Origin: Catajapyx aquilonaris
Taxonomy: Eukaryota
Direction: 5' to 3'
Assembly: GCA_000934665.2 (NCBI GenBank)
Contig: KZ538186.1
Span: forward strand, 1-64,000
DNA: 64,000 bases
The first letter of the stretch is position 1, and every line of letters starts with the position of its first letter. Below, one piece after another: positions 14,898 through 51,656 of the stretch. Below the pieces are notes generated by a model. The model searched no databases. It worked only from the letters and a program-made list of their open reading frames with translations, and was not told the origin of the DNA. The position numbers were made by a program, and so were the translations under genes.

Positions 14898-14990
14898 ATG
14901 CCCGCAGCTCCAGAAGCATCCGCCGAGAATGGCGCTCCAAGGACCGAGTTGCAGGAGTTGCAACTCAAAGCCAACCAGGCAACTGACGAG
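14898..14990 (+). CDS. SNAP25: SNAP-25 first coding exon (exon starts 14879, ATG 14898)
   Basis: ttttctag acceptor before 14879; [31 protein letters not shown]; donor GAG|gtgagt. Confidence 0.93.
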
Positions 14991-20900: not shown

Positions 20901-23900
20901 GGGGGGGGAGTGAAAATAACTGGGAGGCGGGTGACATTTGAGCAGGTAGAAGGTTACGAATTCATTGACAAACGTTTGGGGGAGGGGAGGGGGGTGGCAA
21001 TTAATTCAGTATGAGTCATTTGTCACTCTGGTGTCGGGTCCCCGTCAAGGGGGTCTTCTCCCCATTGCACGTGAATGGCAAACGGTGGGGGCTGGCTTAA
21101 TTATTCATTTCGGGGGGATAACTTTGTGGACATAATGATGGGTCCACCTGCGTGTTGTCATGCGGTGGAAATGCGCTGGTCCGGCAATAATTGGCGAGTG
21201 ACCCGGTGCAGGAGGATGGGTATAGTTTGCGCGCAGTATCGTCTGAAGCCTTTGCCGACGATTACTTTCTTAAGACGAATTGCAGGAAAGTCTTGAATAG
21301 TGCATATGTGATCGATTTTTCTGATCAATTTTGTATGCGAAAGGCGGCCTGTGGAGGATCCCGAAAGCGTTTCTGTTACGATGCCGATGTGTAAAGTTTG
21401 AAGGAGGCGGCTGTGCACCTGTGTCAATTTTGCGTGGGGGTGACTTTGGTTCAAGATTTATCCCCCGACATACCATGCGTGTGCCGAGGAGCACCCCGTT
21501 GTCGTGAAGTGCGATTTTTTTTAAAGAGTGCAGATATGGAGGTGGAGAAATTGAGCTCTCAGACCACTGTGGAACATGTGCCAACAGTGGATGGAGTTGC
21601 TGTTCAGGTGAGTGGACTCTTGCCGATGACTGAGCAAACACCGGGACCTAATCCCCTCGTGGGAATTGCATGCGAATCCTTTTTGGTCTTTGCGGTACAC
21701 AGCTTTGGGGGGGGGAGGGGGGGGGGAAGGACCGATCAATTTCGCGTTTTTTTTTCCTGTTTTTGATTTGTTTTTTTCACCCCCTTTTTGCCTCCTGCGA
21801 AGTTGGTTGGGGAGTTCGAAGAGGGTTCATTTTCCAACAAAAGAGGGAGACTATTTTTAGCCGGCGTGGAAGAGAGATGGAACAAGGATTCCTAACGACG
21901 TATATGTAATGCCGCGGTTCTGCTTCCGGTAATTAGCTCGTTTGATTGGCGCGACTTTTGGGAGGTCGTTAGCACGTGACATTTTGTGACATATTTTTTG
22001 CGTGGTTGTTTTTTAGGTTTTTATTTTGTTTTTCTGCTGAAGAAGAGGGGGGAAAAGCCAGCCCAGTCGCCAGGCTGGTAGATCCCCCCCGGGTGCACAT
22101 AACCCGATTAATTAAGCGGCAGTGTTAAATAAACTGATTAGTCTGCACGCATCGCTGCATTTCAACAAACGTATCGATTTGCGGGAATTCTGAAAGCGGC
22201 AGAGAGGGGGTGGAGAAAAATACATCCCCCCCCCCCTTCCCCTCCCATAACCACTGCGTAGGTTGTGTCAAAATCAGGAAGTAACCCCCGACCTTTTTGT
22301 CTAGCCGCAACTAGGCATCGATATGACACGCATGGGCTATATTTGAAAGTGCGTCGAGAGGGGATTGGTGCGTGGGAGTGTGATTCTGTGGGCTGCCATG
22401 GCGACCATGCCCGGCTGCATCCTCTTGTTGTTGAGTAGTGACGTCAGGCGTTTTTTTGTGTGTGCGCTCCGGATGGTTGGTCCGGAGCACCCTCTGACAG
22501 CCATGGGCACAATGGTATGGCCGCCCGGGGCACAATGGTACATTATGGAGACGCCTGCACGTCTTCCACACCGGGTCGGTGCTAATGAGATGCCGGATGC
22601 ATCTGGCTTGAAAATGTCACCGGGTCGGGTCCACTTCATGCGCTTCCCTGACCGGTATATACTACTACAAACTACATGACGGTGGTTCATTGATAAAGCG
22701 AGGGTTTCAATCGGAATTCGATATGCTGATTGGATGATAGGGAGGCTGTCACTAATGGGATGTTCCTTTTTTCTCATTTTGCAGTCGCTGGAAAGCACAC
22801 GTCGTATGCTGACATTATGTGAGGAGGTAAGTTTCGTTTTATAGCACTTGTTGCAGAAATATTTAATCAAGATCCTGAGGGAAAGTAAAGAGAGTCGTCA
22901 AAGGGAAACTATAGGGTTTTTGGGCGCACCCGCAGTCCGTCGTGCGCCATTCATTATTTACAGTGTGTGCTCATTCATTAAATGGTTATTCCATGTTATG
23001 AAACTCGAGATTTTCGTGTACGAATAAATCTGTGATCCCTGTTTCTTTTTGCTACAAAAAAAGAGTAAGGAAGCTGGCATCAGGACCCTTGTGGCCCTTG
23101 ATGACCAGGGAGGTGAGTCGAATTATTTTTATTTATTTTTTGCTGTAATGTGACACAATATATGTATTACCTGTACCTCGAGTCCCATTTCACCATTTAT
23201 AATTTACTGACTTGTACATAGGCTTCTGCTTGTTCACTTGAGTTTACATTACTCAGCACATACTGCATGGAGTTGATATTGTTTTAACGTTGGATTTTGT
23301 TTGCATGATTATTCTTTTATTTTAGGGCCAGGATGCTGGTGCGCAGACTTTACAGATGCTAGAAAAGCAAGGCGGTAAGGAAATTATTTTTCAAGCTAGC
23401 AATCTGTACATTAACATAGGTTAATTTGTATTTGCTGAAGTCAAGTAGGGCCTACTAACTTATTCTTAGAGCATTGATCACTTTCAGAACAATCAAGATG
23501 ATCCGAATTTATCAAGTTAGGGCCAGCTGTGGTAATTGATGCGGGACAGAATATTAATTAATTTATGGGAGGAGAAGGGAGAAGTCGTGATTCCATTAGT
23601 GTATGGTTAACACATTCTAAGTTCAGGCTAGGCTTTTTGGGAACGTGGAGATTGATTTGAGAAGAATGTTAACGTACCCTGTTTATATAAGGATATATTT
23701 CTGAAACTTGAACAATTTCCCGGATTGTAATGAAGTAGTCGTGCATACGTAACCTCTCCCTTGGTGAACATATTTCATTAATTTTTTTATTACTTGTGTT
23801 CACTGTGGAGCTAGTTGCATAATATTCCTATGTAGCATCCCAGACATCATCTCGTTGTTTTGAGGTGCTGCTAAAATGTGGCCTTGGCAGTGATTTGTGT

Positions 23901-26900
23901 ACTTCAGGGAAATTTGCAGTGCTATATGTGATGAACACAGCAACTGTGTTGTGTCCTGTATGTGGAGGCCTGCAAGGTCGAGTTATGTTTCTTTAGTGAA
24001 GACCAGCAACATGACCACCTTGAAAATTGAATGCATGATTCAGTTGATATGTAATGTGCTCCACAAAACCACCCGAATATGCTCATAGGAGATTAAAGAT
24101 GATGAAATAGGTTCATTGTGAAGAGGAAGGGTTAGTCTTTTTTATTCTCGTAGATTTTTCACTCTTCAATTGTAGAATAAGCCAGGAATGAGACAATTTG
24201 AAGTAAATGAGACTTTTTTTTTGTACGTCTGCCACGACAGCATTGTTGGCCATTATTACTGATCTTACTGATAGTGCCTTATAGTATTTTAGTGTTGGCT
24301 AGGGTGATTGCGACACACCAAACAAAGACAGAGGAGTGTGTCGCAACTTCCTTGAAGCCATTATTTGGTTAGTTTAATTGCCTTCTGTAAACTCTGTTAT
24401 ACTGCAGTACTTGCTTTACATGTTAAGTCTCTGTAGTGAATGCTCTTCTTTTTTCTTATCCGTTAATTTTTATTTTTATTATTCATTTTATCATATATGC
24501 CTTTGTGTTCTCCTCTTTGCTACCTGTCCCTCTTTCAGCAAATGTTGTTGTTGATGTTGTTATTGATGTTGTTACTGATCCAGATGTCATTGTTATTGTT
24601 GTTTAAAACGCTCACCAGCCATCACCATGTCAAATACATCCACAAATATTACTGCATAACTCACAGCTCTACAAGGTGTGCCTGAACAATAAACTGGTAT
24701 TGTGGAGCAGGTGGCAGCCATGTTGGATTTTACTACTCTCTATTCAGTTTAAGAAGTCTATTGGAGGTGGATACTAGCCTGTCTGGGGATCTCCAATGTC
24801 CGTGATTATGCTAAATGTGAACATTTGTTTAATTATTTAAAAACTTGCAATCCCTAATGTTACTTTCGTGGGCGTGACTCAAACCACCACCTCTGGATTT
24901 CTTAAGTTGAATCCCCCTATTTGTTTATAAACAGTTACACGCAGCTTCTGAAAGGCAGAATTTGAAAGTAAGCCACTTTTTAAGAAATACTTCCTGAGAG
25001 GGGGGGGGAGTTTTGTAGTGTCCTGCATAATGTTAGTAGAAATTTAACAGCATCACTACGCAGGCATCGGTGCTGGTAGGACACCGAGTAGACTGCCTGT
25101 AAAATTCATGAGCTCTGTTTCAAAGAGCATTCATCAGGCACTTTGAAGGTCACTTTGCACCCCCCAGGCAAATTGAATGCACTATTTGTGTCCTTGCCTA
25201 GGGGCAGTTTTTATTGAATGAATTATGTTCAAAAATTCGCTACTTTCATTGCATGTATAAGTTAATTATGAAATTTGCATAATGTATTTTCAAGTTAATG
25301 ATTGTATTCTCTGCAAACACAAAAGTGAAATGGATGAGCTTTAAGCACAATAATATTGTTTTCCTCACTCAAACTGGTATGGTTACTTACTGAACATGTG
25401 GTGTCCCACAGAGCAACTTGATCGAATTGAGGAAGGGATGGATCAGATCAATGCTGACATGAAGGAAGCAGAGAAGAACTTGACTGGCATGGAAAAATGT
25501 TGTGGCTTGTGTGTCCTGCCATGCAACAAGTAAGGTTTCCAAAGTCTCTACACTAATGCTTGTTGTCACTAATGTTGTTTCTGAATTTCTATGCTTCCTT
25601 TGTATTTATAGATCGTCATCATTCAAGGAGGATGCAGGAACGTGGAAAGGCAATGATGATGGCAAAGTGGTCAACAACCAGCCTCAAAGGGTTATGGATG
25701 AGAGAAATGGAATGGGACCGCAAGGTGGCTATGTTGCCAGGTCAGACTACTAATTGTTGTGATGTGTAGGTAGTATGATTCAGCTCATTTTGCTTTGTTC
25801 CAATTGTCTTGTAGGATCACCAATGATGCTCGAGAGGATGACATGGAGGAGAATATGGGACAAGTTAGCACCATGCTCGGAAACCTGCGCAACATGGCAA
25901 TAGATATGGGCTCGGAAATTGAAAACCAGAATGTGCAACTTGACAGGATCAATGCTAAGGTAAGTTTGATATGGAGAGTACACATTGTGTCTTTCAAGTT
26001 TTAACATCCTAAAATATTATTGAATGGATGATAGTTGTGTATATCGTGAGCTAATGAATAAGGGATATTTTCTCTTAAGTGTCCATCTGCATGACTTAAA
26101 TTCACATAATTAATGTAAAAGCATGCAAGTTAATAAGCACTTTCACAGTAATTGACTTAGTCATCTAATGTAGACCTGTAGAATGTACAAATTATATCTT
26201 AGGTCAGGTAACGACTGGTATTTAGTTCTCATTTTGAGAGTATATTTGACGTAACTTATCAAGTGAAGGAGCACACTCACTTTCCATTACTCAGAGCATG
26301 AGAAGGGTTTAAATTCACACAGGCTGTAATAACGGTGTCCTGTTGGTATGCTCAGTGTACTCTCATCCATTATGATGCATGCCCATGCATCATCATGTCC
26401 GAGCCATCACTCCTGGTGATTACCCAGTGAGTCCTGATATTTTTGGGGCATCACGTATCACCCACTAAAATGCCTTATTTCCCAGGAGTAGTAGTGGACA
26501 CAATGGTCTGTGGCAGAACACGAACTTGGCCTTTGTCTTCTGTGCTGTTACTTTGGTTCTTCTCAGGGATTCAGTTTGATTCAGGGACCCAAGCCCACAT
26601 ACATTCAGAGTGATGCATTGAATCCCTCCAATATGCTATGGCCTGTTCTAACAGTTGTAACTTAGGGAATTCAACACAGTGAATGAAGTAGGTCAATCAA
26701 TGTAAACATTGATAATTCCAGTGCTTCCAATTTCTGAAACGTATGAGTACTATATGGGGATGTTTTAATGGTTAACGTAAAGTAGCATTCACTTAAGCTA
26801 GGGCATCATCAATAACATTAGGAAAAATTGGAAAGATATGTGATGTTTTTGCAGCGTACCAGTCGTAGAAACTTCATTGGAGTTGTAGATGCGGTTGAAT

Positions 26901-28557
26901 TTTATAATTTGTAACTTGAATGAGAGGCAGGAGGGATTCGCTGAATTATCTTGTACACACTCATATGCACACATGCACATATATATATTTCCAGTTCCCA
27001 ATGTTCATTTGTATTTCTCTCCTTCAGCTGCACATGTGAAATTTTTATTATATACTGAGGACCTGCACTCCTTCTTAAGTGTTTCTTTTTGAACTGCACG
27101 CTCTAGTGCATGTGCCTGGTATGAAATGATGAGGTTGATTAATGGGATGGTGAGATAACAGCGAGAAAGAAGGAAAGAAAGAAAGCAAGCTTTTCTTGCA
27201 AATCCAGGCCTGAAACCACTTTTGGAAAAAAAAAAAAAAAGAGAGAGAGAGAGAGAAAGAGAGAAAGACTTGTGTCATGCATGCATCAGTTTCATTGGGG
27301 GAGGCCGAAATGCAAGTGATAAACCACCTTCATCTTCCCCTGACAGGGCCAATCCAACGTCTGCCGTGTGGATGCAGCCAACCAAAGGGCCGGGAAACTG
27401 CTGAAGGCATAATTGTGGCCACTATACAAAGAAAGAGCGAAAGCATAAGAATGCTACTTGCTGAACACTTTTATCGTTACGTTCAGATTCTTTCATTTTG
27501 CCCATTATAGCTTGGCTATAATGTTTCAGTCCTAGATGTCTGTTTGCTCAGCTTTGTCATAAGACTGTTGGGGAATAAGAAAGAAAGATCAAAACATAAG
27601 AAAAGGTTGAAAAAACTTGGTGGCTTTGAGAAAAAGTGAATCCCAACAGATTTCTTCATTTTCACTTGTCTTATGAGAGTCTTGCTGTTCATTGTCACAC
27701 TTTTTTTGTTGTTTGCAACACGTGTTGTTACAGGCAGGACTTGGGGTCTCCATTTTGTTGCAGATATGATGATAAATTACTCATAATAACCATCATTTCA
27801 ATTTCGTGTATTGTGATAATAGCAAGGCAGTGTAAAAATGGATAGTGCACTGTTGCCCCTGTTTCAAAATAATATAATATATATAAAAATGCATATGTAT
27901 CTGTGCATATATGCATAGGTGTATGTGAATTATGCATACATGTTAGGGGGTTTTGATGTGGATGATCCAGTTCCATTCTGGAGAAGGAAATCAGAAGCAC
28001 AAAATGGTTGCACTTGTTGCACAGGACTGACTACAAGTATTTGCCTGAGTTGCGCAGTACCACAAAATAAATGAAGGATGTGGAGGTAAAACATAAAGAG
28101 AAAAACAAGACTACATAGGAAAAAGGAGAAATAATTTTGCATCTACCTCGCCAAGAGATTCTGCTTATTTCTTGCTAAACTTTGGTTTACTTATAACCCA
28201 TTATGTCTCTGTCGCTTGCAGTGTCATCAAATACAGGTTTATTGGGCTTGGCTGAAATTTTGTGCTGTTGTTGCGTGTTTTTGGGGTGCTGTGTCACTGG
28301 GAGGGAAGCTCGTGTGGGGGGTGGGGAGGGCTGTGCCAGGGGGTGTTAAAGGGCAAAAGAGAAGTGGGTGGGGGGAAATAATGCAACACAAATGGGAATC
28401 TTTAATGAAGGTGAGATCTTTGTCAAAATCGGGCCAGGTAGTCATCACCTGTTTTCCCTTTTCCCCCTTGATTATTTTTTGTACATACCAGGCCGAGTCC
28501 AACGCAAGCCGGATATCCGTGGCCAATCAACGGGCTAGCAAGTTGCTCAAGGCCTAA
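14898..28557 (+). CDS. SNAP25: SNAP-25 (Qbc-SNARE), spliced CDS: 14898-14990, 22785-22826, [23064-23112 or 23326-23374], 25412-25529, 25612-25740, 25815-25959, [27347-27412 or 28492-28557]; about 213 aa
   Basis: Joined exons read [101 protein letters not shown]/...[69 protein letters not shown]. All introns GT-AG, phases consistent, palmitoylation Cys cluster present. Confidence 0.97.
17380..17525 (+). mobile_element. SINE central-domain fragment (Deu/Nin-like)
   Basis: TTCGGAGAGGAAGTAAAGCCG...GGTCCCG...GCACGTTAAAGATCCCC resembles the Deu/Nin conserved SINE domain as recalled; not aligned. Confidence 0.45.
18796..19070. mobile_element. Tc1/mariner MITE, almost fully palindromic
   Basis: TA|CAGGGTGTAAATCCT...AGGATTTACAGCCTG|TA with arms of about 105 bp. 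Confidence 0.85.
22785..22826 (+). CDS. SNAP25: SNAP-25 42-nt exon
   Basis: ttttgcag|TCG...GAG|gtaagt; [14 protein letters not shown]. Confidence 0.96.
23064..23112 (+). CDS. SNAP25: SNAP-25 exon 4a (49 nt, canonical)
   Basis: aag|AGT...GGAG|gtgagt; [16 protein letters not shown](E). Confidence 0.95.
23326..23374 (+). CDS. SNAP25: SNAP-25 exon 4b (49 nt, duplicated, mutually exclusive alternative)
   Basis: ttttattttag|GGC...GGCG|gtaagg; [16 protein letters not shown](E); same length and phases (0/1) as 4a; AG..TL..L..QG pattern kept. Confidence 0.88.
25412..25529 (+). CDS. SNAP25: SNAP-25 118-nt exon with Cys cluster
   Basis: cacag|AG CAA CTT...AAC AA|gtaagg; [40 protein letters not shown]. 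Confidence 0.97.
25612..25740 (+). CDS. SNAP25: SNAP-25 linker exon
   Basis: tatag|A TCG...GCC AG|gtcaga; [43 protein letters not shown]. Confidence 0.96.
25815..25959 (+). CDS. SNAP25: SNAP-25 145-nt exon (Qc SNARE helix, N-terminal part)
   Basis: ttgtag|G ATC ACC...GCT AAG|gtaagt; [48 protein letters not shown]. Confidence 0.97.
27347..27412 (+). CDS. SNAP25: SNAP-25 proximal alternative last exon (8a)
   Basis: catcttcccctgacag|GGC CAA TCC AAC...[27 protein letters not shown]; same 66-nt coding length and phase as the distal last exon. Confidence 0.88.
   Translation, partial: GQSNVCRVDAANQRAGKLLKA
28492..28557 (+). CDS. SNAP25: SNAP-25 distal alternative last exon (8b)
   Basis: Pyrimidine tract then taccag|GCC GAG TCC...[27 protein letters not shown]. 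Confidence 0.94.
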   Translation, partial: AESNASRISVANQRASKLLKA

Positions 28558-31500
28558 AATGTGTGCCCTGTGGATTAACTCTGCCCCCTACACTAGCAGT
28601 GCACAGGTACTGCAAAATCTCTCTCCTCCTATTGGTTGGTTCTCTGGCCTGAACAGTGTGCACCAACAAAAGAAGTTTCCTCCTGATTTGTATACCCCCT
28701 CCATATTAAAAGTAGTGCTTATGTTCTCCAGTGGGTTGGGTATGTGAGTATGCTTTTAGTGAGGTACGTGCGTTTTTCTTTGATCTTTTTGATGTGCCAA
28801 CCTGACCAGTGAGGTTGTAAAGTCATCTAGTTCCAATTGGTCTGAGCAAATGACTACTAAATTGGCAGTCTACCAGGTATACCCCTGGACTTCATTGCAC
28901 GTTCAGTTTTTTTGTTCAGGTGCACATATTTTGTCAAGTCCAGTCTTTCTTTTCCATACTTGTACCTTACTGTGTGTGTGTGTGGGAGAAATGTCCCACC
29001 TTTTTCCAGAAATCAATGTCTTTTTTAGGCTTTCTATATCTTCATCTGTCGTAGGCCTAAAGCTAGAACCGATCCGTAAAAAGAGACTCACTGACCCACT
29101 TTCACAGGAAGGAAGTGGATTTGATCTCTTCTTTTGGCTATTGCGCCTCTGGAGGCATGGCTAATTTATTTCAGCCCCTTTGCTTGTACTGTAAGTGTTG
29201 GCTTTGAACTGTCTGTTTCTAAGAGAGTCATGGGGGCAGGGTGGGTGGGGGCTGCATGATCAATGGATGTGTGTGCATTTGTGTTGCAGGCACAGAGGTT
29301 TCACCACCCTCTTTCCAGAGTGTTTCCCTCATAGGTTCTCTAGACAACTCATTTGCTTACACAGTACCTTGTCTCCAGCCACCCGTCTCCCAGGGAATAT
29401 ACTGACTCATATCCCTCTTTGTGACTCCAATTCATTTTTGGGGTTTTCAGTTGGCCAGGGTATAGCTTTTGTATGTCTTGTTTGGTGTGCCTTACCACAC
29501 ACCCATTTGTGTAGTTTGATTTGCTTCCTATGGCTGAGCTATCGTAAGACAGTAGTTTGGCTCTCCTACAATTCAACATGTCAGTAGTTGTCAGCTGCTG
29601 TAATTTGAGGGAGTAATTGAGGGGTCAGCTAGGGTTCTTCCTTCTTCACATCGGCACTGATGCAGAGTCATGGTGTGATAGGTGTCTTGCACTATTCATT
29701 GCAATCAGTTCTTCAATCACAGTGTGAAAAGACTCATGTGGGTTTTAGGCGGGAAATTGTGCAGTCCTGTTCGCACGGCTCTAGCACCAGACTGGGGCTG
29801 AAATATGTAAATTCAAATAGCCCTGGCTTTGAGGGAGAGTCCTGACACCTCCTGTTCAGCCACGGCTGTGGTTGGATTTTCTACTAATCACCACCCCCAA
29901 GGATCTAGAATGGTTCTGCCACCCCTGTTCCCACCACCACCACCTCAACCTCTCTTTCAGGACCTACCTGAGGTAAATTAGACTCCAACTACAATTTTGT
30001 CGTGTGTAATGCAGGAGGTTTGGTGCCTAAGGACTTGCGTAGAGCTTGGGCACCTGGCCAGGGCTGCACAATTTCCCTTCTAAAAGCAGTCTAGAAGGAT
30101 CTCAAGATTAGAGATCTATTCCAAACAGCCAACTGAAGGTGGAGGAACTCTCTGAGATTGTGATAAATTATATCAAAACACATTGTAATTACCTTTCTTG
30201 TTTTTCCCCCCTGGAAGTTGTCCTCAAAAGGTGAGAGGTCTGAACCTGTGCAATAAACACACCATCTAGAGTTAAAATGGTGAATAATTTTAGATGCTAA
30301 ATTTTAGAAATGTACAAAAAATGTAAAGGAAAATAATTTTTTCTCTTTTCTTTCCAAAAAAGAAATTCATATTATTCGTAGTGTCTTTTGAGATGTAGCT
30401 GAAGAAATGATTCCAGCAAAACAACTAAGTTCTGACAGTGTACATTCTGTATATAGTTAGATATTGATAAGTTAACCTAGAGCATGGACAGAGTCCTAAC
30501 CCGAAAACTAACGAACAGGCTTGTGGGTTGGTACCTCCATAGTGGGGGGCAAAGCAAATGCGAACCAGTTTACATCCCAAGTACTAATAAGTCTTCAGCT
30601 ACTCATTGTATACGTTTTACTATTACACCCTGAATGTTAGTGGAATGTCATATCACATTTTAGTTTCCACTTATGTACCCATGTATAAAACAAGGAGAAA
30701 GAAGTGTATGATCAAATTGTGCATTTAACACATTTATTGCTTGATATTTTTATGGAATAGCTGGAGATGGGAATTTTTCTGGGGTGCTTATGTTGAGGCT
30801 AAAGCAGGAAAAGAGCTTGATTGGATTCAGATTTCCCCCCTTACCCATCCTACATCTCTCACAGTATTTTTGCTTTCAAGTAAGGTGTTCTAAATCACTG
30901 TGTACTTAAGGACGAGAGACTGAAGGAAAAAAATAGGAGTCCCCAACTTTAGCCCCACAATTTCAACGAAGCTTCGAGAGGCCTGGAAACGGTGCTTGTT
31001 GAGGATACATGCTGCTGTGATAACAAGCAGGTATCAGGGGTTTGACATGACATCCTGCTTACTTTTGTGTTTGTAAAAAAAAAAATTGACTCACCAACCA
31101 ATTAGATTATTTTGCTGGAGAGACCAATGCAGACTGGTGAGGGCGAATGTTCAGTAATGACAGACATTTATTCCAATTTCCAGAAGAAGGGCTTGAGGTT
31201 GGGGGATCTCGAAAGGGAGCATCTCTTTGGTATATCCTTGTGTCTCCGTTGTATTTTTCATTGGTCACAAAATACAACTCACTCAGCCTCCTCTCCCCTC
31301 ATACTCTCATATCAAGTGATTTGTCCTATGTACTTCCTTTCTTGCCTGGACCTATTCTAATTCATTGTATTATTTATTCTTTCTCATTGTGGGAAAATGT
31401 CCAATTACTTTTTGTAAAGGGGGTTATAGACGTAAGAGGTAGTGTAAGAATTTTGAATGCAAAATAAACTGTAACTGTCATACTGTGCTACATAGTCGTG

Positions 31501-34500
31501 GAGCAGGCTATCATTTTGGGCAAATGTCAAAGCACACCAGAGGGGAACTTGAGGATTGTTCTAGGAGGCATGCTCACAATTATACCACCTCTGGATAAGC
31601 ACAGTTGCCAAGTGTACCTATGTCCACCAATGACAGTCCTCGCGCCAATTCCTGCCCCCATTCCAGACAGCAGCAAAATCATGTTTTCAAAGTTCCCATG
31701 AACATAGAGGAAAAGTTGCTGTTTTAGCACTTGAATTTTTGACATGCCTCCCAGGCAACTCACTTCTGTCTGGGATGTTTTGATTACTTACTGTATACTG
31801 GGGTTAGTCTATTATAAAAAGTCTTTATAAAGTGCTGCCAATTTCATCAAATACACACCCATTCAAATCTCCCACATTCACCTAAGCTCCTGTGACCTTG
31901 AAACTCACTCATTAAAAAACATCCCTCAAGCCAAGAACCCCCCCACCCCCAGGTAAACTTGTGCTGGATCCGCCACTGCTGCATACGTAGTGGAAGTGGA
32001 CACACTGTGCATATCAATTCCTGCTCTTCGTTGATTTCGCCCCCCCACCCCTCGAACTGAAATCCTGGCTACGTCACTGTATACAGACAACTAAATTGAT
32101 GTCTTTGCTGTTACTGGTACACTTTTCCAGTCATCTGAACCATCTTTTTCGCACACTGAAACAATCCTAAGTAACACATTGCAAACAGAAGATCAAGTTG
32201 TTGTAGCATTCATTTTGTGTTCTTTTGCTTGAAACTTGGACTTGTTTCAGTAGTGCCTCAGTTGGTACAGTACCTGGTGCTCCCTTTTAAAATGTACAAC
32301 TGCTGCAAATACTGTAAAAAACTGAATTTCAGGTTCAGGCTAAAATTCAAACAAGAGGTAAGTCTCAGTCGGTCTCAGAACTATCCAACCCTTGTCAAAA
32401 AAGAAATTCCTCAGCTGTTTGGATTGACCTCCCCTCAAAATTTCTCCCTTTCGAAGCATGTGTGATTTCCTTACAGGGGTTTTAAGGAGTAGAGAAAAGT
32501 AACTCCATCACATAATAGTTCAATAAGTATTGAAGGAACCCACAATGTCACTTCTGGATGTCCCTGTGTGGTAGTGATGTCAGCAACAGGACATGGAACA
32601 GAAGAGGGGTTGCATTTATACCGGTCTGACGGCCCAAGTGAAAACCCTGTATGTCGCCTTTTTGTCATTTCAAGATATTCATGTTTGAAGTTTTTTGTTT
32701 CCATTGTCGTATATGGAAGTGCATGATGTCGATTGGCCAAAAATTTGCAAGGGTTGCTCCTGCAGTTACGGGCTTGTATCCAAAGGTGTGGCTTGCAAAG
32801 AGTAAAATGGTGCACTTAACTCCATTTCAGTGATTTTCGATGATACAGGGTTTTCACTTGGGGCGTCAGAGTTCCACCTTGTATGTTGCAACCCAGACTT
32901 TCCGAAGGTCATTAAATTTGACAAATGGCACATACGAATCAGAATTAAAATGGATGAAATTGCATGACCATCGTGACCCAGTCTCCAAGAAAGAGCATTC
33001 CAATCAACAGTTGTGACTACTTTGCTACTGCCTTCCCGCCCACTTCCCACCCTCACATAGTCCATCAGGTTGCACTCCTGCTATCTTGCCCTGCTTGGCC
33101 ACCATCCACAGAGAAAACATAGAATTTGTGAATTGCCACCTCTCATGTTCCGCTCTCTAAATCCCCATTGGGTTCACTTCAATTTCCGGCAAATATTTGA
33201 AACAGCTTTGTGTGAGTGACATCATACACTCTCCCTCCTTCCCACTGTTCCAGACAATTCCTAGAAGGCAACTGGCTTCCCTTCCTGCCAGGTCAAATAA
33301 TAATAATACAAATGCCGGTCTTGAGTGCATATGCTGAAATACAAATGGGGAATTGCAGATGAGAGAAGAGCAGGACTAGCTGAGGCAGCAGGGAGGATGA
33401 GTCAATCACAACTCCTTTACGGAAACAGGTATACAGTTGCAAGCATCTAGATAAAGACAGGGTCCCTTCCCTGGCCCACCTCCTTTTGAAAGTAGCTGTT
33501 GTTGCTCCTGATAGTGACCCTGTGTTGACAAGGGTGCTGCATTGACCAAGTTACTGGTTCAAGAGAATCTCGAGGTAGGAAAATAAGAGATGGTATCTCC
33601 ACTGGTGTTTATAGAAAATATTTGCCTACTATCCGCCTCACTAATGTAAAACTGTCACTTCAATTGACACCCAAATTGCACAGCTACTTCATTAAAAAAT
33701 TTGTGTCATGTATCACAAGAAGGCCTGATTCTGATATCTGTTATAGGTTCCACCAGTGACATCTAAACTCACCTCCACCACTTCCTCGCTACCTCCCATT
33801 CCCATGGGTTCCTTGCATACACCCTACCCTCTCCCTTCCTAAAATACCATACCTAATTGTCACCAGGACAATGTGACCAGGGTCTAGTCTAGGACACCCT
33901 GAACAAACCATATGTTCATACCAGTCCATACTATAACAAGCTTATTAGCAGCGTGCCCTCCCAGCAAACATGACAATGCCTTTCAAAAGAAAAAGGAGGG
34001 GAGAAAGTGGACCCCATCTGTATCTTTCTGCTTGTGACTGTAAGTAAGGGTAGAGCAGCTGAGGTTTACACCTAAGCTGTCAAATTTATCAAATTAGTTC
34101 AGGCCCCAACAAAAATCCACTCCCACTGCTCCCTCCTGCATTGTTCACATGACTCATTCTGCAAGCACACCAATAAGAATATTTCATATAAGTTGTAATA
34201 ACTTACGCTCAGCTTGTTTTACTAGCATGTAGCAAAACTTTGTACATATGGAAAGCTCTGTGAGAAAAAACATTATGGTGAGAAGTAAACCAAGTACCAA
34301 TAGAATGGGCTCATGCCAAAGTGAACCATGTCCAAAGGAATATTTCATACCAGTTTATGTTGCTTTTCCATGTGACTCACTTGCCAGAATGTAAAGGGTA
34401 TAAAACAAAGATTTTACTGAACTGTGTCCTTTCACTTAATATACTGACAGTGCTGACATGCCAAGTGTAAACCCTGTGTGTCAGATACCATGATTAATCG

Positions 34501-35314
34501 GTTATTTTTGACTACAAAATTAAACTTGTAGGGTTTGTCATACACTAATGATTCTTCACGGAAAGCTCAGAGATACTGAGTTTCTCCCAACAGGTCAAGC
34601 TCATGATTGGGGGAATTCTAAAGCATTTTCCCCTTGTTAAGTTGTTCAACATACACTGCCACCACTCAATTTATCTCGCTGCTTGTAATTGAAATGATAA
34701 AGACACATTCAACTCACAAGCAAGGAATGGAATGCACATGGGGGGTTGGGGAGGGGGGGGGGGGGGGNGGGGGGGGGGGGGGGGGGCGGTTGGAGGAAAA
34801 GGGATAGTTATGTGGGGTAGATGACAGGAACTTCACATTTGGGGTGCAGCAAAAAGGTGCACACTTCTAGGCCACAGGTTCCTTGTGATTCTCGAAGATA
34901 CCATTTTCACAATTTTGGCTCCACTACAAGACAACTGCATGCAAATTTGCTAAGAAATGTCCTATTATGCTAACCCACAACCATCCATGCCTGCCAGGTG
35001 ACCTGACGGACATGATATTATCTAACACACGAGTGGTGTCACAAGAGTTGGCATGTAATTACATCCATAATGGGAGCCACAATCAACCAGGAGTTGTCAA
35101 GAGGAAGTGTGCACCTTTTGCACCACCCTTCAGATGTGTGATTTATACACATAATTCATACAAGGTAATGGTACAGCCAGGAGAGAGACAAAAGGGGGTG
35201 GGGGTGGGGGGTGGGGGGTTTGAGTGCTGTACTGGGTTCACTTTAGAGTAAGACCAACAACCCATTTTCCTTAATGAAATGGAACACACATGGTTTCATA
35301 ATGTATACAAGCTG

Positions 35315-35424
35315 CTAGTACTCAGGTTCTTCACCATATTCATCCTCACCACGATACTGACTGAGGAGTTGTGCAGCTGAAAGGTGAGTGTCGGCATCGT
35401 CCTCATCATACTCGTCTGGTTCAT
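35315..35424 (-). CDS. BRF1: BRF1 last coding exon
   Basis: gtttccag|AT GAA CCA...TAC TAG after a 59-nt intron; [36 protein letters not shown]. Confidence 0.87.
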
Positions 35425-38400
35425 CTGGAAACGAGAACAAGTAAGTAGATCTTGTCACCATATCTTCTTTCTAAGGAGCTTACCATAATCAGGGTCCATA
35501 TCAGTCCCATACTGAGCAGCACTTGGTTCGTAGTTAACTTCCATATCATGATCATACTGAACAGGGCCTGATTCTACCACCACGTCTGTTTGCGCTTCAC
35601 TAGCTACCTCTTCCTCCTCAGCTACATTCTCCACCACTCCCTCAGTCACTTCTTCCATTGTACCCTCCATCGGTTCATCTGGCCCAGCCTCCTGCTTATT
35701 CTCTGTGATATTCTCCACCCCATTCTCCACCACATTCGCCACCCCATTCTCCACCACAGTCGCCACCACATTCTCCACCCCATTCTCCACCACATTCTCC
35801 ACCCCATTCTCTGCCCCTCTCTTAGCCAATGGTTGAGCTTGCTGCTTATCCAGTTTTTTAACTTTTGGGGACTTCTGGGGAACATCACTTTCAGGTTCTT
35901 GCGACCTGGATGAAATGTGAAATAATATAATTATAATTCCAGGTTCTAGGTTTTACCAAATATGACTTCTAAAGTACAAGTAATGAGTGCTCATTGAATT
36001 GAGCCATGGTAAGCAGAATATTTTGAAGGGATTCTGAATTCGCACAATATAAAACGTTGCTGACACTAACGATAATAAAAAAGAAATTTACCTGCCACCA
36101 TAAGGTAATAGTTCCAATGGGTTATGCTACATACAGTGCAGTGGTGGCAGTTACATTCGAAATGGTGTCATTTTTCTCCTGTGCCACTTACTAGTTGATG
36201 ACTGACATCACTATCAACAAACTAGGGAATGCTGATTGGTACATGGGACTCTCTTGAACTGAACCATCACCTTGTGTGAAGCCATTTTTGGGGTTGTCCA
36301 TATGGCAAGTTATACATATTGGCTCTTGCTGAGTCATTCAAAAATGACATCTCATACAGTGTGGTTGTAAATTTTTTCTCATGACTTTAGTAGTCTTTGC
36401 AAAGACGCCAGACTACTACTGATCAGACTACTGATCAGAATCCAATACACACTGTAACCTACTATGAATCAATTATTTCCAGAACATTCAAAGTTCCATT
36501 TAAAATGGTAGTTGCAATCCAGAGAGAGGACCCTGTCATTTGCATGTCTCAGCCATCCCACGGGAAAAAGCCATATCTGCAAAACTGACGAAGGTCACAT
36601 GCAGGCCCCACACAAGATGACCTTCATTTCTATCACTTTTGCAGATAGAACTTTTTTCCTTGGGACGGCAGATCTGTGGCAACCAAAAACCCAAGACAAT
36701 GTTCGACATTTTCATTTCATACATGAAGATTCTCTCTACCACACAATCCATCATGATCTTGTTAATCTGACAACCAAAATTTAGGAGGGTAAGAAGAACC
36801 CTCCTAAATTTTGTAATTTTTTGCATTTTCTATTTCTGCTTGGCCTATAGTGTTGTGCAAACACCACCTCCGCTGCTAATTTTCACATCAAAATAAAGCT
36901 ACCATATTACCTCTAATATTGCGGCACGCCGGTATAAAACGAGGTCGACCAGCATGCCGGTATAACCTGGGGGTGGCCGGCATGCCGCAATACCCGAGGT
37001 AGATTTCCATAATTTTGATCCTTGTCAAATTTTTTCTAATGCACCTGATACTGTACTAAAATCATGTTACGGTGAAAAATGTGCGAGTACACGCAGGGAT
37101 GCGAGAATTGCAAGTTCATCTGTTGCACAGGGCTTCGAGTGTGACCAATCCGACTGTCAGCCTGCTCTGAGAGGGGAACGCCCCTAAATATTAGAAAGGA
37201 TCTGCAAAGTATCAACGCAAATTCCTTCACTCCTTCGTTTGGGCTGTCAATAGTTCACTGGTCGCATATCTCGTTGGTAGTCAGAGGATTGATTTGTGTA
37301 GTATCAATTTGTCTGAGAAGCCTTGTCACTCGGTGAATAAAATCCAAACCAAACCGTATGCAATATCCTCGTAGGTATGCTTCCCTTCTAGCAGCCTTGC
37401 ACTTTTAATTTAATATGTTTCTGTATTTTGAACTTAACGAATGATCTTATGGGATGTGTCAGTCAATAGAAGTGTCCTGGGCTGTATGCATACCGTACAA
37501 CATTGTGTAATGCATTCATTTGAGTACTAACGATAATTTTCATAGAGATCGTAAGAAAACCTCACCTTATACCGGCATACCTCGCTTAGACTGGCATGCC
37601 GGTATTGCCACCAGATCGTGCATTTCTAAAAACTGGTCGACCTCGCCTACACCGGCAAGCCGCAATATGAGAGGTAATACGGTAAATGCGATATTCCGAA
37701 GCCACAACACCTAGCAGCCGGTCGCCGCGACTGTAGCTTGCTCTAGGGTGGTGCGAGCAAGTAGAATATGACCTCACACTTGAAATCGATTTTGTATAGC
37801 AATTTATGAATCAAGTTTAATCAATCATTTACATATCACTGATATCAGTCGCGACGACCCCCGGCCCGCGACAGAATGCAGGTGTTGTGGCTTCGGAATT
37901 CCGGTCTTTTGGCTTGTATTTTGACCCTGCTAACATGAAAATTAGCAGCAGAGATGATGTTTGCACAACACTATAGGTCAAGCAGAATTTGAAAATCCAA
38001 AAATTTTCAAAATTGAGGAGGGTAAGAAGAGTCAGTTTGGGTGTGAGACACAATCCTGATATAATCTGGACTCAAGGTCTGATGGTACATATTCCCAGTT
38101 GTGGAAGGGGAAGGCAGGTGTTTGGGAAGGAGCAGCCAATCTGATGAGGAATAATTGGGTTAGGTATATGAGAAAGTAGAAGATAGGAAATAAATTCATG
38201 TCCTATATCATTATTTTGATAACAGGACAATGTATGGCTGGCAGAAAGTGACTGTGATCCCTGGCCAACTTGATCTTACGTAACAATCATGAGAAAAGTG
38301 GACTGCACAGTTTGAATCAGTGAATTTTCCTTATTTTTAGGTAACTAATTTTGAACCCATGTCAGTACATCTTTAAGAGCATCAAACCATACTGCAAGGG

Positions 38401-41400
38401 GATATTTAGAGTGCTTGCATTGAAATGGTGTAAAAGCAAACAGTCCTGCAAGCACATATATGCAAGAAACTTTCATGAACGTTTCCCATTTGAAACTCAG
38501 GCATTAGGTCCAGACTCAGTTCTCGCTAGAGCAGATCAGAAACTCAAGGCCAAGATGGTGTTGTCAATCACACCTGTCTTAATGTACAGTAAGTCCCTGG
38601 TTTACAGAGTTCCATACTTATAAATGGGCTCCCAAAGCTCCCCATAAGGATAATAGAGTGAAACTTCTATAAGTTGAATCTCCATGGGAATGATAAAAAA
38701 CTTCAAGCTAGAGAAGTTTGGATTTCTTAAAGCACAGAACTCTAAGAACTATAAGGAAGCATACATTTATATCCAGTGACAAATGGTGTTCAAAACTTAA
38801 AAATAACTGTCACTATCACACTTACAATGTTCCTCATTGTTTTGGTGTAAAAAAATCTCTGTTATGGACATTTGCCTAATCTTAGATTCAAGGATTCAAT
38901 TGTCACAATCGAGTCAAACACTTCTTTTGGTACGTCTGGTACACAGAGATCAGGAAATTGAGCCTTTCTGTACATGTGGCCTACTCTCAACCCTTCAGCT
39001 GGGCAATAAGAAAATTTTCTCGACCCACCAACATGAACTTCAACTTAGGGAGACTGAAAATGCATCCATTAAGGCCCTGCCTGCACTTCGAGTTATGGAG
39101 AACTTCGAGCTATAAAAATTTGAGTTAGGGAAGTTTACATTGTGATCAACCAACCTCATAATTTTCTTTGATTTATAGAGAACTTCGACTTAGGGAAGTT
39201 CGAGTTTTAGAAGTGTTACTATATACAGGGTGTCCACAAATGGGGCCATAGTAAAAAAATTCTAGAAAATGCAACATACAAGGTACAACTCCCGTACATA
39301 TCTCATAGCAAAGAGGAAGGTTGAAAGTTTTTTTTGACATATCTGACCACATGAAATCATTAGTGCCGTGCCATCTAGGAGTTAAAAATAGTGTCGGCGG
39401 AGGAAAAGGCTTGGTGCATACTGCAGAAGTTAACGCCACAGCTGCAAGAAGATGCCCCGGATTTCATCTTCCAACAAGATGGAGCGCCTCCGCATTTCCA
39501 TCTCCACGTCTGCGACTACCTGAATAGGCTACTGCCTCAAAGGTGGATCAGGTGTTCCACTGACAGGGATGCAGTGTTCCAGGCTTGGCCACCCCGTTCA
39601 CCGGATTTGGCGGCGTGTGATTTTTTTTGTGGGGGTACATTAAGGATGCAGTGTTTGTGCCACCCCTCCCGAGATCTTCGGCCGAATTGAAGCACCACAT
39701 CACTTCTGGCGTGGCTTCCATAACGCCGGACATGCTACAATGCACCGATTTCCAGTTAAACACCTGCCGTGTCACACACGGTGCTCATATCGAGGGTTTG
39801 TATGTATGTAAAAAAACTTTCAACCTTCCTCTTTGCTATGAGATATGTACGGGAGTTGTACCTGGTATGTTGCATTTTCTATAATTTTTTTACTTTGGCC
39901 CCAACATTGTGGACACCCTGTATAATTATCTCTCCACTCTCAATCACTTCTGCATATCGCTCGTTTATTATTACATAGTTCTAACTCCAATTTTGAGAAA
40001 AAGTGACTTAAGAGGTGCACCTAGTTCTAACTCCATCGACCTATCCAAAAAAAAACTGGTCAAGACAATGATATGGATGCATTTGGCACAGTAGAAGAAA
40101 ATGCTACAAAGGCCTATCTTCACATTGCCGTTTTTCATTCTAACTCTGGAGTTACACTTTTGTGATTCGGAAAAAATTCAAATTAGGTGATTTAAAAAAC
40201 TTCTAACTCCGCCATTGTTGCTGCTGTTACAGACAACGACAATGACATTGGGACAGTGAAACACAAAATATGAGTAGGGTATGTAAGCCACAGTATTGCA
40301 AAAATTAACTCATTACATTTCCATGTTCATGGTGTAATTGTCGTACTGTCCAAACTTTGATTTCAAATATCTCTGCTTCATTAAAAGTGGAGTTAGAACT
40401 ATGTAGTAATGAACCGGCAATATGCTGACTAATATCAAGTTCAACGTAAATACTGTAATTAAATTAATAATTCAGAAACTACTTTCTTCCGTGCATGTAA
40501 ATAAATCCGCAAGGTGTAAGCGGTTGGTTGGAGCAGGATCTTTACGCTTGCAGCTATTATTATTACTGTGTACACGTTGTTCATCAAGGATCTGAGTTAC
40601 ATACAAATCCAACCTACAGACATTCTCAGGAATGTCTCATGTTCATAAGTTGTTGCCTTTCCTGTATTCCATTTCTGAATAATTTGGGTACAGTAAGCTC
40701 CCAGGTCACTTCTTATGTGCTCTGTGGATGGACTCTGATTTAATTTTGAGTGGGACAGGTGTTTCATTGTGCAAGCAGGCGATTCAGTGCCTTTTAGCAC
40801 CTGACCCGTCCTCTACCATGCAAATGCCACTCAATTGCTTCTTTATGGGCCTAACTTCATTTGCCCCTGTTAGAAATGTACCTAATGTTTTTGTATGTCC
40901 ATACTATGATATTTACAACTAATTTGTCATGAGTCTTGTACCCTGGCAGCAACAGATTCTATGATCCACAACACCATTTGGTTTGCATGTATTTGATAGC
41001 TTTTAGGAAAATTAGCGCAGGTGTCAGTCTCATGTTGTGAGCTGCACATCTTATCTCAGCAACCCCTTTAGAAATCATTATAAATGATATGAAACTGTCA
41101 CCTTTTAAAACTTACTACTGTACAACACAGGAGTCTGTCAGAACCAACAAGCCATTATATTCTGAATTGTGCGGGAGAAAGCTAACGCAATGCCGCAATG
41201 TGCACACACTTCCTACACTACATATTCCTCTCGGTTCCTCATGTGCATTGCAGCTTTCTTATCACCTTGCATTCAATTTCCAAGACTCCAACTCCACCAA
41301 CCACTATGGTTTGTGCCCTGATTTCTCCACTCTCTCTCTCCCTCCCCCCCCCCNNCCCCCCCCCCCCCTCTCTGTCACCCCACAACTAAGAATAGAATTA

Positions 41401-44400
41401 TCTGGAGAAAAGCTGCTTAGTTCGCAGACACCTGCATCATAAAGCATAATGTATTACCTTTTTGTAGGGGTGACTGACACATCATCTCCGGTACTGCTTT
41501 GTACAGGCACTTCAGCAGCCTCTGATGATGTGGAGGTCTGGTTGGTATTGAGGTACCGCAGAACCTCATAGTTTATCTTGCTCGAGATCTTCTTTTCTTG
41601 CAACATCTTTTCTATAGCTTCTCCTGCCGAGTTAGCTTGAAAGTTCTTTTTCTTCTGAGGTGGCCTCCGCTTCTTCTTTTCGGGCTTGCCTTCCAGTTTT
41701 TCCTTGGCCAACTTGTCTTCCTTGGCTTTTTGCTCGAGAATGTAAGCTTCATTCAGCTTGTTCCACAGACCTGTCTTTTGTTCTATCTCCTCTTCTGTCA
41801 TTATGTATGAATCAATCTCCGTGTCATCTATGCCTTCCAAGCTAATATCCTCATCAACAATCTCTACCGCTTCAGCCGGCTGAGATGAGGTGCTGGTCAG
41901 GCCTAGGCTGGCTGGGCTGGGCCCTAATCAGATAGATTTTATTAGTAACAAGAAATCAAATGGTCACGCCAGCCCCCCGCAACCCCCTCTCCTTTTGCAT
42001 GCGCTTAACGAGTCCCCTATCCCTGGATGTGGTGCACTGGACCAAATCCCATTCGGGCAGACGACTTTTGAACCATTCTGAACCTACCTCAATTGTCAAT
42101 TCCCATTCAGCCCCAGTCCGCAGATCCGAGCCCGAATGTGATTTGGAGCGTTCGGGTCTCTGGCGCATGGATCTGCAAATGGAGCTGAATGGGAATTGAC
42201 CATTTAGGTAGGTTCAACCGAAGCAGGTTGGCATAGTGGATAAGGCGTCCGAATGCTAATCGGGAGGTCCTGGGTTCGAATCCCGGGGCCGGCAACTCTG
42301 ACCGTGGTTTTCTGTGGTTTCCCACGGTCCTTCCAGGGAAATTCCGGAGTTGCTTCCGTAATTAATACGCTACAGCCGCTTCCTTCCGTCCCTATCCTAT
42401 CCCAAAGAGCACAGTAAAATGAAAAGCAAACAGTTCCAGGCAAAACAAACTTCCCCCCTAAAGAGCCGATGGCGGATAATGGGGTATGAATTATTTAGGT
42501 AGGTTCAGAACGAAGTAGTCTGCCCAATTGCAATTTGGTACAGTGCGTCACATCCAGGGATAGGGGACTCATCAAGCGCACACCCTTCACCATAAGGAGG
42601 GACTGGGAGTTGCGGGGGGCTGGGTCACACATGAAATCACTAATTTTGGGCTTATTTGCATTTCACTCATGTCATTCTTGGAAGCTTTTTTTAGCCTACT
42701 TATGCATGATAATAATAATAATAATGGATACCCCGTGAAGGCCTCCTTGGGCCTCTTAGGGGATCATCTTTTCGTGAACCGTCTTTAATCATTGCCTGCA
42801 CTGTGATGGATTTTGATTGTGGGAGGAAACGGGAGAACCCCGAGAAAACCCACGCAAACACAGAGAGAACCCATCGAAACTCTATCCACATAAGAATCCT
42901 CCGTCCGACCCGGGGATCGAACTCGGGATCTCAGAGGTGGAAGGCTGTGGCGCTAACCACTACGCCACCGTGTCACCCTCCTACTTATGCCTGATAGATC
43001 GCACTTATATTAGAAAGTTGAACATAGTGCCTCCAAGTTTCATATACACAATAGTAACCTATAGACATTACATTGGGGAATGTTATTATTTTCTGGACTG
43101 TTCCACCCTGACTCTGAGGATCTCAGCAGGTCTATTCATTTATCAGCTGGTGTAGTGTAAGGGATAGTGTGGTGACGTCACAGCCCTACAGTCTCCAATC
43201 AGAGCGTGCATCTTAGGTTACACCAGAATAAACAAATGTACTACTTATACTGGTGTCACACCAGTGCTACACTGGCTGATTAACAAAATGACCTTTTCTT
43301 TTTTACTTAACACAGACTGCATGATGCCAACCTAGTCCTTGGGGCATAGTTGGTACTGCAATTATGTCATCTAGTCCTGGAGACCGGAGTGACTGAAAAG
43401 CAGAATTTAATTCTTGTGTGTCTCGCTCTCTGTCAAGACATTCCCAAATGCTAGACAGAGTGCTGTTCATCACAAAACGTTGAGTCAGCTCATGTTCTTT
43501 AGAGATGTCTTCTGATTCACCACCACCTATAAGGATATTTTTACGGATGGTTTTTTTTTAACCTAATTTTGAGAGGGGTCAGCAACAACAACGAGATGGC
43601 AACATTGAATTAAAGTAGGAAGGAGCACATATGGTGTTTCATAACTTGACCGACAAACTTCTATGGTGAACCCATGGATACCAGTAGATCACTTATGCAA
43701 AGGAGTCATTTGAGGGTGTGGTGGAAAAAGGTGATAACCCGCACAAGTATAACTTTTCAGGAGAGCGAATTGAAGTTTGCTTTCTCTTAACAAATCATAG
43801 GGAACTTGGGTTTTGATGTAGTCCGTGTGGCCGTCTCGTGCATGATACATGAACTGGAGTATACCAAACTGTTTGTCATGTCTTTTACATAGTTGCTAGG
43901 TCAGTGGTTTCCAACCGGGGGGTCGCGGGGGGTCGCGAGCCTTGGTTCAACTTTTTTTTTCAATTTCTGTGTCAATTGAACCATTTTTACAGTATGGTAT
44001 GTCATTATGACTGCAAGTAAGTCACTCCATGGATGGGCCGGAAGCGACTGTCAAATGCCTAGTTGTACAGCTGATTGGCACAGTGTAAATGATGGATCAG
44101 TGATCCAGAGTTGGTGTCCTTGCAAAAACATAGGCCTCTTTCACACAAGGCCACCATGGCAGCACTGCCGCATAAATTAGGCGGCGCTGCTCTGGCAGAG
44201 TGTTGCAGATTTGTTCGCCACCGCGGATGTGCTGCCAGCCGAGCCATAGTCTCAAAATGCACGTCTGGTGGCACGAAAAGTTGTATCTCATGTGAAAGGC
44301 TTCATATTATTCAATGCAAACACGTGGCAGCAAGGCCAGCTGGCAGCGCCGAAAATCACCTTGGCCGCCACCAGTATTTCTGGCGCCATGCTGGCAGCGC

Positions 44401-51619: not shown

Positions 51620-51656
<37 letters not shown>

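Follow-up and report, generated by a model that had tools for sequence, protein, structure and literature searches.

Two alternative terminal coding exons in a SNAP-25 gene of Catajapyx aquilonaris

Whether one SNAP-25 gene can supply more than one C-terminal end is the question raised by a 64,000-nucleotide (nt) stretch of DNA from Catajapyx aquilonaris (GenBank assembly GCA_000934665.2, contig KZ538186.1, positions 1 to 64,000 of the forward strand), which is called the window below and in which positions are counted. The C-terminal ~20 residues of SNAP-25 power the last stage of SNARE complex zippering, and studies of SNAP-25 isoforms have focused mainly on vertebrate exons 5a and 5b. In this study, we found that the SNAP-25 gene on the + strand of the window ends in two alternative terminal coding exons, the proximal 8a and the distal 8b. 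It is likely that the last coding exon was duplicated long ago and that the choice between the copies is one of alternative 3' splice sites in a shared terminal region.

The exon pair and its splicing

The first-pass annotation of this DNA had proposed two 66-nt phase-0 tail exons, each preceded by a pyrimidine tract and CAG, and translation reproduced its quoted peptides exactly. Because the penultimate coding exon, E6, ends on a whole codon (AAG/GTAAGT, 25959/25960), 8a and 8b are both in phase 0. The acceptor sequence ...cttcatcttcccctgaCAG stands directly ahead of the first G of 8a, and ...ttttttgtacataCCAG directly ahead of that of 8b. In the 20 bases preceding the AG, pyrimidines number 16/20 for 8a and 13/20 for 8b, and 11-15/20 for five other acceptors of the gene. 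The distance after the penultimate exon is 1387 nt for 8a and 2532 nt for 8b; the two acceptors are 1145 nt apart and the gap between the exons is 1079 nt. When the + strand from 22000 to 40000 was scanned by pattern for tail-like open reading frames (ORFs), 8a and 8b were the only ones returned. The encoded peptides are identical at 13/21 residues and different at 8/21. The earlier naming of positions 186 and 193 and an extra Cys is correct as far as it goes, and is incomplete as a list of the differences.

Evidence on splicing comes from run X1, the one public run holding the window stretch, whose kind is unrecorded and whose contigs were placed on 22700-31600. Such contigs show presence, not absence, and can neither rank isoforms nor count the molecules that end at a given site. 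Three GT..AG joints were found, namely 22826 to 23326, 25740 to 25815 and 25959 to 27347. The last of these, which joins E6 to 8a, lies in a 1225-nt contig that is then colinear with the window over 27345-28306. 8a is spliced in Catajapyx aquilonaris. Splicing into 27347 was one of the two points on which the first-pass annotation had let its proposal stand or fall, the other being conservation of 8a in related species; it had expected junctions from 25959 to both 27347 and 28492, and the former is the one seen. We infer the use of 8b in this species from its conservation.

The joints might be ascribed to a young processed DNA copy of the gene, in which case splicing would be unsupported. The unrecorded kind of the run and its contigs over introns would agree with such an origin. 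One contig, however, is spliced from E1 through E2 to E3b and then runs into the next intron, which fits partly spliced RNA and speaks against a retrocopy; all 8 placed pieces are at least 99% like the window, and one contig ends 20 nt past a poly(A) signal. A processed copy is therefore a very improbable source of the joints.

Divergence and origin of the two tails

The coding parts of 8a and 8b differ at 23/66 nt, 12 of these differences falling on third codon positions. By the Nei-Gojobori method, pS is 0.82 (saturated) and pN is 0.21. In a simulation of 200,000 runs, each putting 23 random substitutions on 8b, 0.33% of the copies kept at least 13/21 residues and 0.03% also kept an open frame and the stop. 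No alignment beyond the acceptor was found in the 120 nt flanking each side of 8a and 8b, and the 3' untranslated region (3' UTR) after 8a does not align with the sequence after 8b. Since synonymous sites are saturated and the flanks unaligned, the duplicate appears to be old, with only the coding part having been held, in both copies. Judged by sequence, the pair is an old duplication with both copies under constraint.

These data bear on the idea that only 8a works here and that 8b is a silent relic of the ancestral canonical exon inside the 3' UTR. The 8a joint is the sole tail joint in run X1, and one contig follows the genomic sequence through the 8b acceptor, as this idea would have it. 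But 8b retains the frame, ends at the same codon as 8a, and is preceded by CAG and a long run of pyrimidines. It is a canonical tail, having 17/20 residues in common with a Cloeon dipterum tail and ranking with the canonical tails. The synonymous and non-synonymous pattern and the simulation speak against neutral decay of either copy, and the distal canonical form is annotated as coding in every two-tailed relative. We regard the relic as improbable.

To place the two tails among those of other arthropods, tails were taken from proteins matching the neighbouring exons, from their cluster members, and from proteins that matched the final 40 residues of Procambarus isoform X8. In the RefSeq entries of Artemia franciscana, isoforms X1 and X2 share one 21-residue tail and X3 ends in ATSNVHHVTDASNKANQLLKS. 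Those of Procambarus clarkii carry the tails AGSNTARVNMANERAGSLLKNA and ATSNVTHVAEANEKAGKLLKS, each combined with two or three of the three variants of exon E3. A tail of the SNVTHV type is carried by Cherax and Chionoecetes. Ochlerotatus camptorhynchus has three tails (X1/X6/X7), and more than one tail each was found in Tribolium, Apis, Vanessa, Lutzomyia and Culicoides; in Periplaneta, only a divergent tail was seen. Predicted proteins of Blattella germanica, Brenthis ino and Ooceraea biroi (P0009, P0041 and P0204) hold two tail exons in one protein, which is likely an annotation error arising from tandem exons.

A metagenome scan gave 80 loci. Among these, 29 are spliced with one tail, none of which has Val at tail positions 5 and 8; 28 are unspliced with one tail detected, several of them with 2.5-4.9 kb downstream and no second tail; 2 are unspliced with two tail exons (L030 and L048); and in 21 no tail was found. 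In L030, the penultimate exon is followed after 119 nt by the proximal GNSNVTHVTEASQLANKLLK exon and after 553 nt by the canonical GESNENRIGVANQRAGQLLKKA exon. In L001, the proximal VLSNVTHVDLANQRIGKMQ exon lies at 187 nt and the start of a canonical AQSNEA... exon at ~468 nt, where the contig ends. The tail exons of both loci are each preceded by AG, and the spliced locus L002 carries the canonical AQSNEA... tail. Between L030 and L013, the proximal exon shows 0/63 differences and the preceding intron 28/124 (Fisher p 4.6e-6). These sequences indicate that duplication of the tail exon is genuine and has been conserved in part of the pancrustacean lines, but is not universal.

The remaining two-tailed locus, L048, has tail-like ORFs SESNEERIKEANTRAAKLLKS and GTSLTDRVDTANKRANKILRNQ after AG (L048:1035-1100 and L048:2405-2473), 599 and 1969 nt downstream. 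Its penultimate exon is less arthropod-like. Alternative SNAP-25 tails may occur outside pancrustaceans.

Is 8a the same exon as the proximal SNVTHV exon of crustaceans? The SNVTHV proximal class comprises the tails of Procambarus, Cherax, Chionoecetes and Artemia, and those of L030/L013 and L001. Val at both tail positions 5 and 8 is found in 8a, in 4/4 SNVTHV references and in 0/101 other unique tails. 8a is also the proximal copy, like the class exons in L030 and L001. At positions 6-7, 8a has Cys-Arg where the class has Thr/His-His. We also scored each tail by D, its mean similarity to the SNVTHV class minus its mean similarity to the other tails. D was -4.7 for 8a, -14.1 for 8b and +11 to +18 for the four references, which would place 8a nearer to the canonical tails; among the other tails, 1/101 scored as high as 8a. 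In a BLOSUM ranking against 69 tails, the best matches of 8a and 8b were both canonical, which assigns 8a to no class.

The residues and the position suggest that 8a is probably orthologous to the crustacean proximal SNVTHV exon. A wider proposal, which we put forward tentatively and with less than even confidence, is that the proximal/distal pair is an ancient pancrustacean module, in which 8a would be the local SNV..V exon, chosen by alternative 3' splice site and freely combined with the E3 versions. Alternatively, 8a could conceivably have arisen from 8b within this lineage, without relation to the SNVTHV exon, and be a minor or non-functional variant. Its best matches are canonical (14/20 to two canonical tails), 8b matches it about as well (13/21), and its D score is negative. 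Against this, 8a is spliced in assembled contigs, the synonymous saturation and the conserved residues show long constraint, and Val5, Val8 and the proximal position are common to 8a and the SNVTHV class. A lineage-specific duplicate is accordingly given a low probability.

The choice of tail and its consequences

In the mechanism that we favour, the E6 donor (25959/GTAAGT) would have a choice of two acceptors, the proximal one at 27347 and the distal one at 28492, and each exon would bring its own stop and the 21 residues that close the second SNARE helix. With 8a, the 3' UTR would reach at least 28306 and probably extend across 8b as far as ~31488. With 8b, exon 8a would be removed within a 2532-nt intron. 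The choice would be one of alternative 3' splice sites in one terminal region, and not a race of two poly(A) sites.

A classical pair of alternative last exons would work differently. 8a transcripts would be cleaved after 28066, giving a short 3' UTR, and 8b transcripts at 30252 or 31463, giving a long one, so that splicing to 8b would compete with polyadenylation after 8a. The positions of AATAAA at 28066, 30252 and 31463 given by the first-pass annotation are confirmed, and the first of them stands 654 nt past the 8a stop; in L001, an AATAAA overlaps the stop of the proximal exon, and a contig says nothing about the number of molecules that stop at any one site. Some observations speak against the alternation of short and long 3' UTRs that had been drawn from these signals. 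The 8a-spliced contig remains colinear for 240 nt beyond the AATAAA at 28066, to 28306. Further contigs cover 28336-29176 and 29168-31488, leaving a gap of only 29 nt (28307-28335) after the 8a contig, and the latter stops 20 nt beyond the AATAAA at 31463. By base composition, ~0.6 AATAAA is expected in 1080 nt (hand arithmetic) and 1 was observed, which is close to chance, and neither AATAAA nor ATTAAA occurs between the two tail exons of L030. Three points favour a shared 3' end: the colinear contigs, the contig end after 31463, and the absence of any hexamer between the L030 exons. We infer a shared poly(A) site near 31488 for both forms, and we consider the classical arrangement unlikely.

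The region between and behind the two exons was also inspected. No Pfam domain was found in the two long ORFs of 28558-31488. The frame of 8b is open for 119 codons upstream of its acceptor (28135-28491, +), probably by chance, since the window has 44 ORFs of at least 110 amino acids. The sole AG/GTRAG site between 8a and 8b is at 28411 (+), 81 nt before the 8b acceptor, a spacing similar to the size of the short introns of the gene. Removal of a 3' UTR intron between 28411 and the 8b acceptor was considered and is unsupported, the contig 28336-29176 being colinear across the site.

RNA pairings of the docking/selector kind were sought in 25960-28500. The 22 inverted pairs found (12-30 nt, 73-93% complementarity) include none that both adjoins the donor and pairs before an acceptor in a standout way; in this one sequence, they are indistinguishable from chance. 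The tandem repeats of 25000-32000 amount to one AT-rich 22-mer array, which is unrelated to the exon pair.

What the choice would change in the protein can be read from the alignment to chain 1xtg_B, in which the first exon residue corresponds to chain position 40. We take this position to be residue 185 of mammalian SNAP-25, following the numbering of the 1XTG construct; the differences between 8a and 8b then fall at 185, 186, 189, 190, 192, 193, 194 and 200. In the published SNARE layer scheme, 185 (A/G) is core layer +3, 192 (I/V) is layer +5, and the others are surface positions. As previously noted, the Ser187-equivalent and the ANQRA segment are kept in both exons; the former is presumably a protein kinase C site, and the latter presumably holds the bonds cut by botulinum toxins. 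Because the differences lie at core layers and on the surface, the tails would tune the final SNARE zippering and the partner surface. A functional difference between the 8a and 8b tails is plausible.

Together with the Cys-Arg pair and the negative D score of 8a, several observations weigh against an old, conserved pair selected as alternative 3' splice sites with a common 3' end. The joint from 25959 to 28492 is absent from the contigs of the single run X1, and the contig 28336-29176 is colinear across the 8b acceptor. Run X1 is not recorded as RNA and covers introns too (e.g. 23808-24222 and 26043-26568), so the sequence past 28066 or before 28492 may be unspliced RNA or DNA, which leaves the shared 3' end unproven. 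The constraint test rests on 21 codons only. The duplicate is not universal, since several single-tail loci lack a second copy in the downstream sequence, and 0/29 spliced loci carry a V5/V8 tail. Finally, the best identity of E6 to database proteins is only 90%, so that the comparison was with more distant arthropods, in some of which the same architecture is present.

Gene layout and comparison with known systems

The gene layout was obtained by tblastn with 11 arthropod SNAP-25 proteins as queries (Table 1). Every query (11/11) matches the trio E4, E5 and E6 (summed E 1e-30 to 1e-61) as well as E2; E1, E3a/b and 8a/8b are matched by most of the queries. The matched database proteins carry PF00835 (Qbc SNARE, SNAP-25 family), and the exons of the window themselves were placed by alignment. 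The linker Cys cluster of the SNAP-25 type after the first SNARE motif is present in E4. In a PDB search at E<=10, SNAP-25 was present in every chain matched, 19/19 for 8a and 20/20 for 8b, including one fusion chain for 8b; with queries of only 21 residues, the E-values are weak (0.009-1.3). Identity of E6 reaches the 90% given above among 701 proteins, the E5 linker is up to 90% identical to insect SNAP-25, and E3b is closest to decapod and Artemia variants. By these alignments the gene is of the arthropod (pancrustacean) SNAP-25 type.

Table 1. Features of the SNAP-25 gene, by position in the window
Feature	Position	Strand	Description	Support or remark
E1	about 14898-14990	+		tblastn
E2	22785-22826	+		tblastn
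E3a (4a of the first-pass annotation)	23064-23112	+	49 nt, 16 residues	tblastn
E3b (4b of the first-pass annotation)	23326-23374	+	49 nt, 16 residues	tblastn; contig joint 22826 to 23326
E4	25412-25529	+	Cys cluster CCGLCVLPC	tblastn
E5	25612-25740	+	linker	tblastn
E6	25815-25959	+	penultimate coding exon, second SNARE motif (ITNDARED...QLDRINAK), donor AAG/GTAAGT	
Intron removed with 8a choice	25960-27346	+	1387 nt, GT..AG	skipped exactly by the 1225-nt contig
Acceptor of 8a	27325-27346	+	pyrimidine tract and CAG	16/20 pyrimidines
Exon 8a, coding part	27347-27412	+	21 residues and TAA, 66 nt, phase 0	translation, contig
3' UTR of 8a transcripts	27413-28491	+	would be intronic with 8b choice	contig-backed to 28306
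AATAAA between the exons	28066-28071	+	candidate poly(A) signal	654 nt after the 8a stop
Acceptor of 8b	28450-28491	+	pyrimidine tract and CAG	32/40 pyrimidines
Exon 8b, coding part	28492-28557	+	21 residues and TAA, 66 nt, phase 0	translation, conservation
Downstream 3' UTR	28558-31488	+	probably common to both forms	contigs 28336-29176, 29168-31488
ATTAAA	28705	+		
AATAAA	30252	+		
AATAAA	31463-31468	+		contig ends 20 nt downstream

E3a and E3b provide two versions of the segment with which the first part of SNARE helix 1 ends. Since each has 49 nt, the use of both or of neither breaks the frame, and they are mutually exclusive. The E3a peptide is identical in many arthropod isoforms. In a run X1 contig, E2 is followed directly by E3b (22826 to 23326), without E3a, and the E3 exon occurs in 2-4 versions among the RefSeq isoforms of other arthropods. 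This duplication, which the first-pass annotation had also reported, is real, and its count of up to four isoforms agrees with two E3 versions and two tails. In RefSeq, 3/4 tail/E3 combinations occur in Artemia and 5/6 in Procambarus. In practical terms, this study revises the gene model, which now has two variants of the first helix and two tails, the proximal of which is spliced.

Elsewhere in the window, exons of a gene of the BRF1/TFIIB type lie at 41454-52189 (-; Brf1 TBP-binding E 3.9e-27, TFIIB repeat E 1.7e-17). ORFs with BTB (E 1.3e-11) and BACK (E 3.3e-5) domains at 58065-60379 (+) probably belong to a Kelch-like gene.

If the wider proposal of an ancient pancrustacean module is true, one arthropod gene makes two C-terminal zippering ends (layers +3 to +8), and splicing would give a functional split, for example between fast synaptic release and other secretion. 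Such a split would be comparable to that between the vertebrate paralogues SNAP-25 and SNAP-23, or to SNAP-24 of higher flies. A conserved C-terminal pair would allow two tail designs to be compared in one genetic background, and would matter for annotating or knocking out arthropod SNAP-25.

The literature searched, which did not extend to the supplements of PMC12857021, held no description of alternative last exons in arthropod SNAP-25. That paper, a butterfly study, lists a SNAP25 splicing event whose exon is unspecified in its passages on the event (PMC12857021). Tail variation of arthropod SNAP-25 seems to be unstudied. The alternative tails themselves are already widely annotated in arthropods as RefSeq isoforms, and the window adds another case. 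As in the window, these isoforms come from the same gene, with the boundary after ...RIN.K and tails of 20-22 residues that are combined with E3 versions. Examples are Artemia X1/X2 versus X3, Procambarus X8 versus X7, Tribolium castaneum X5 versus X8 and Apis mellifera X6 versus X1; Cherax quadricarinatus X4 is a further isoform with an alternative C-terminus. The RefSeq tails are automatic predictions. The window differs in that 8a has SNVCRV where the crustacean proximal exon has SNVTHV, the remainder of 8a being canonical-like, and in its exon gap of 1079 nt, compared with about 220-370 nt in L030 and L001.

Vertebrate SNAP-25a and SNAP-25b arise from mutually exclusive copies of exon 5 (PMC2581893). 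According to a passage of the same paper, a duplicated exon 5 is not described in Drosophila (PMC2581893). Like the pair in the window, the vertebrate pair is a tandem exon duplication within the same gene that changes a few residues of a SNARE helix. However, it affects the first helix and the linker and is internal and mutually exclusive, whereas the window pair is terminal. The exons duplicated in arthropods are neighbours of exon 5, and their duplication is independent of the vertebrate one.

Drosophila SNAP-24 and SNAP-25 are two separate genes. As in the window, two proteins of the SNAP-25 type with different C-terminal tails are thereby found in one animal; they differ from the window in being the result of a gene duplication, so that the whole protein differs, whereas the window has an exon duplication. 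Among the database matches there is a distinct dipteran tail group, GDANNERMTGVNKRANNLLKS and the like, whose members are named SNAP-25 by their sources and which we assign tentatively to SNAP-24. Another parallel is the syntaxin gene unc-64 of C. elegans, which has alternative last exons. There, too, the C-terminal end of a neuronal SNARE is exchanged by the choice of terminal exon, but the protein is another one, and what its alternative exons supply is the membrane anchor rather than SNARE layers.

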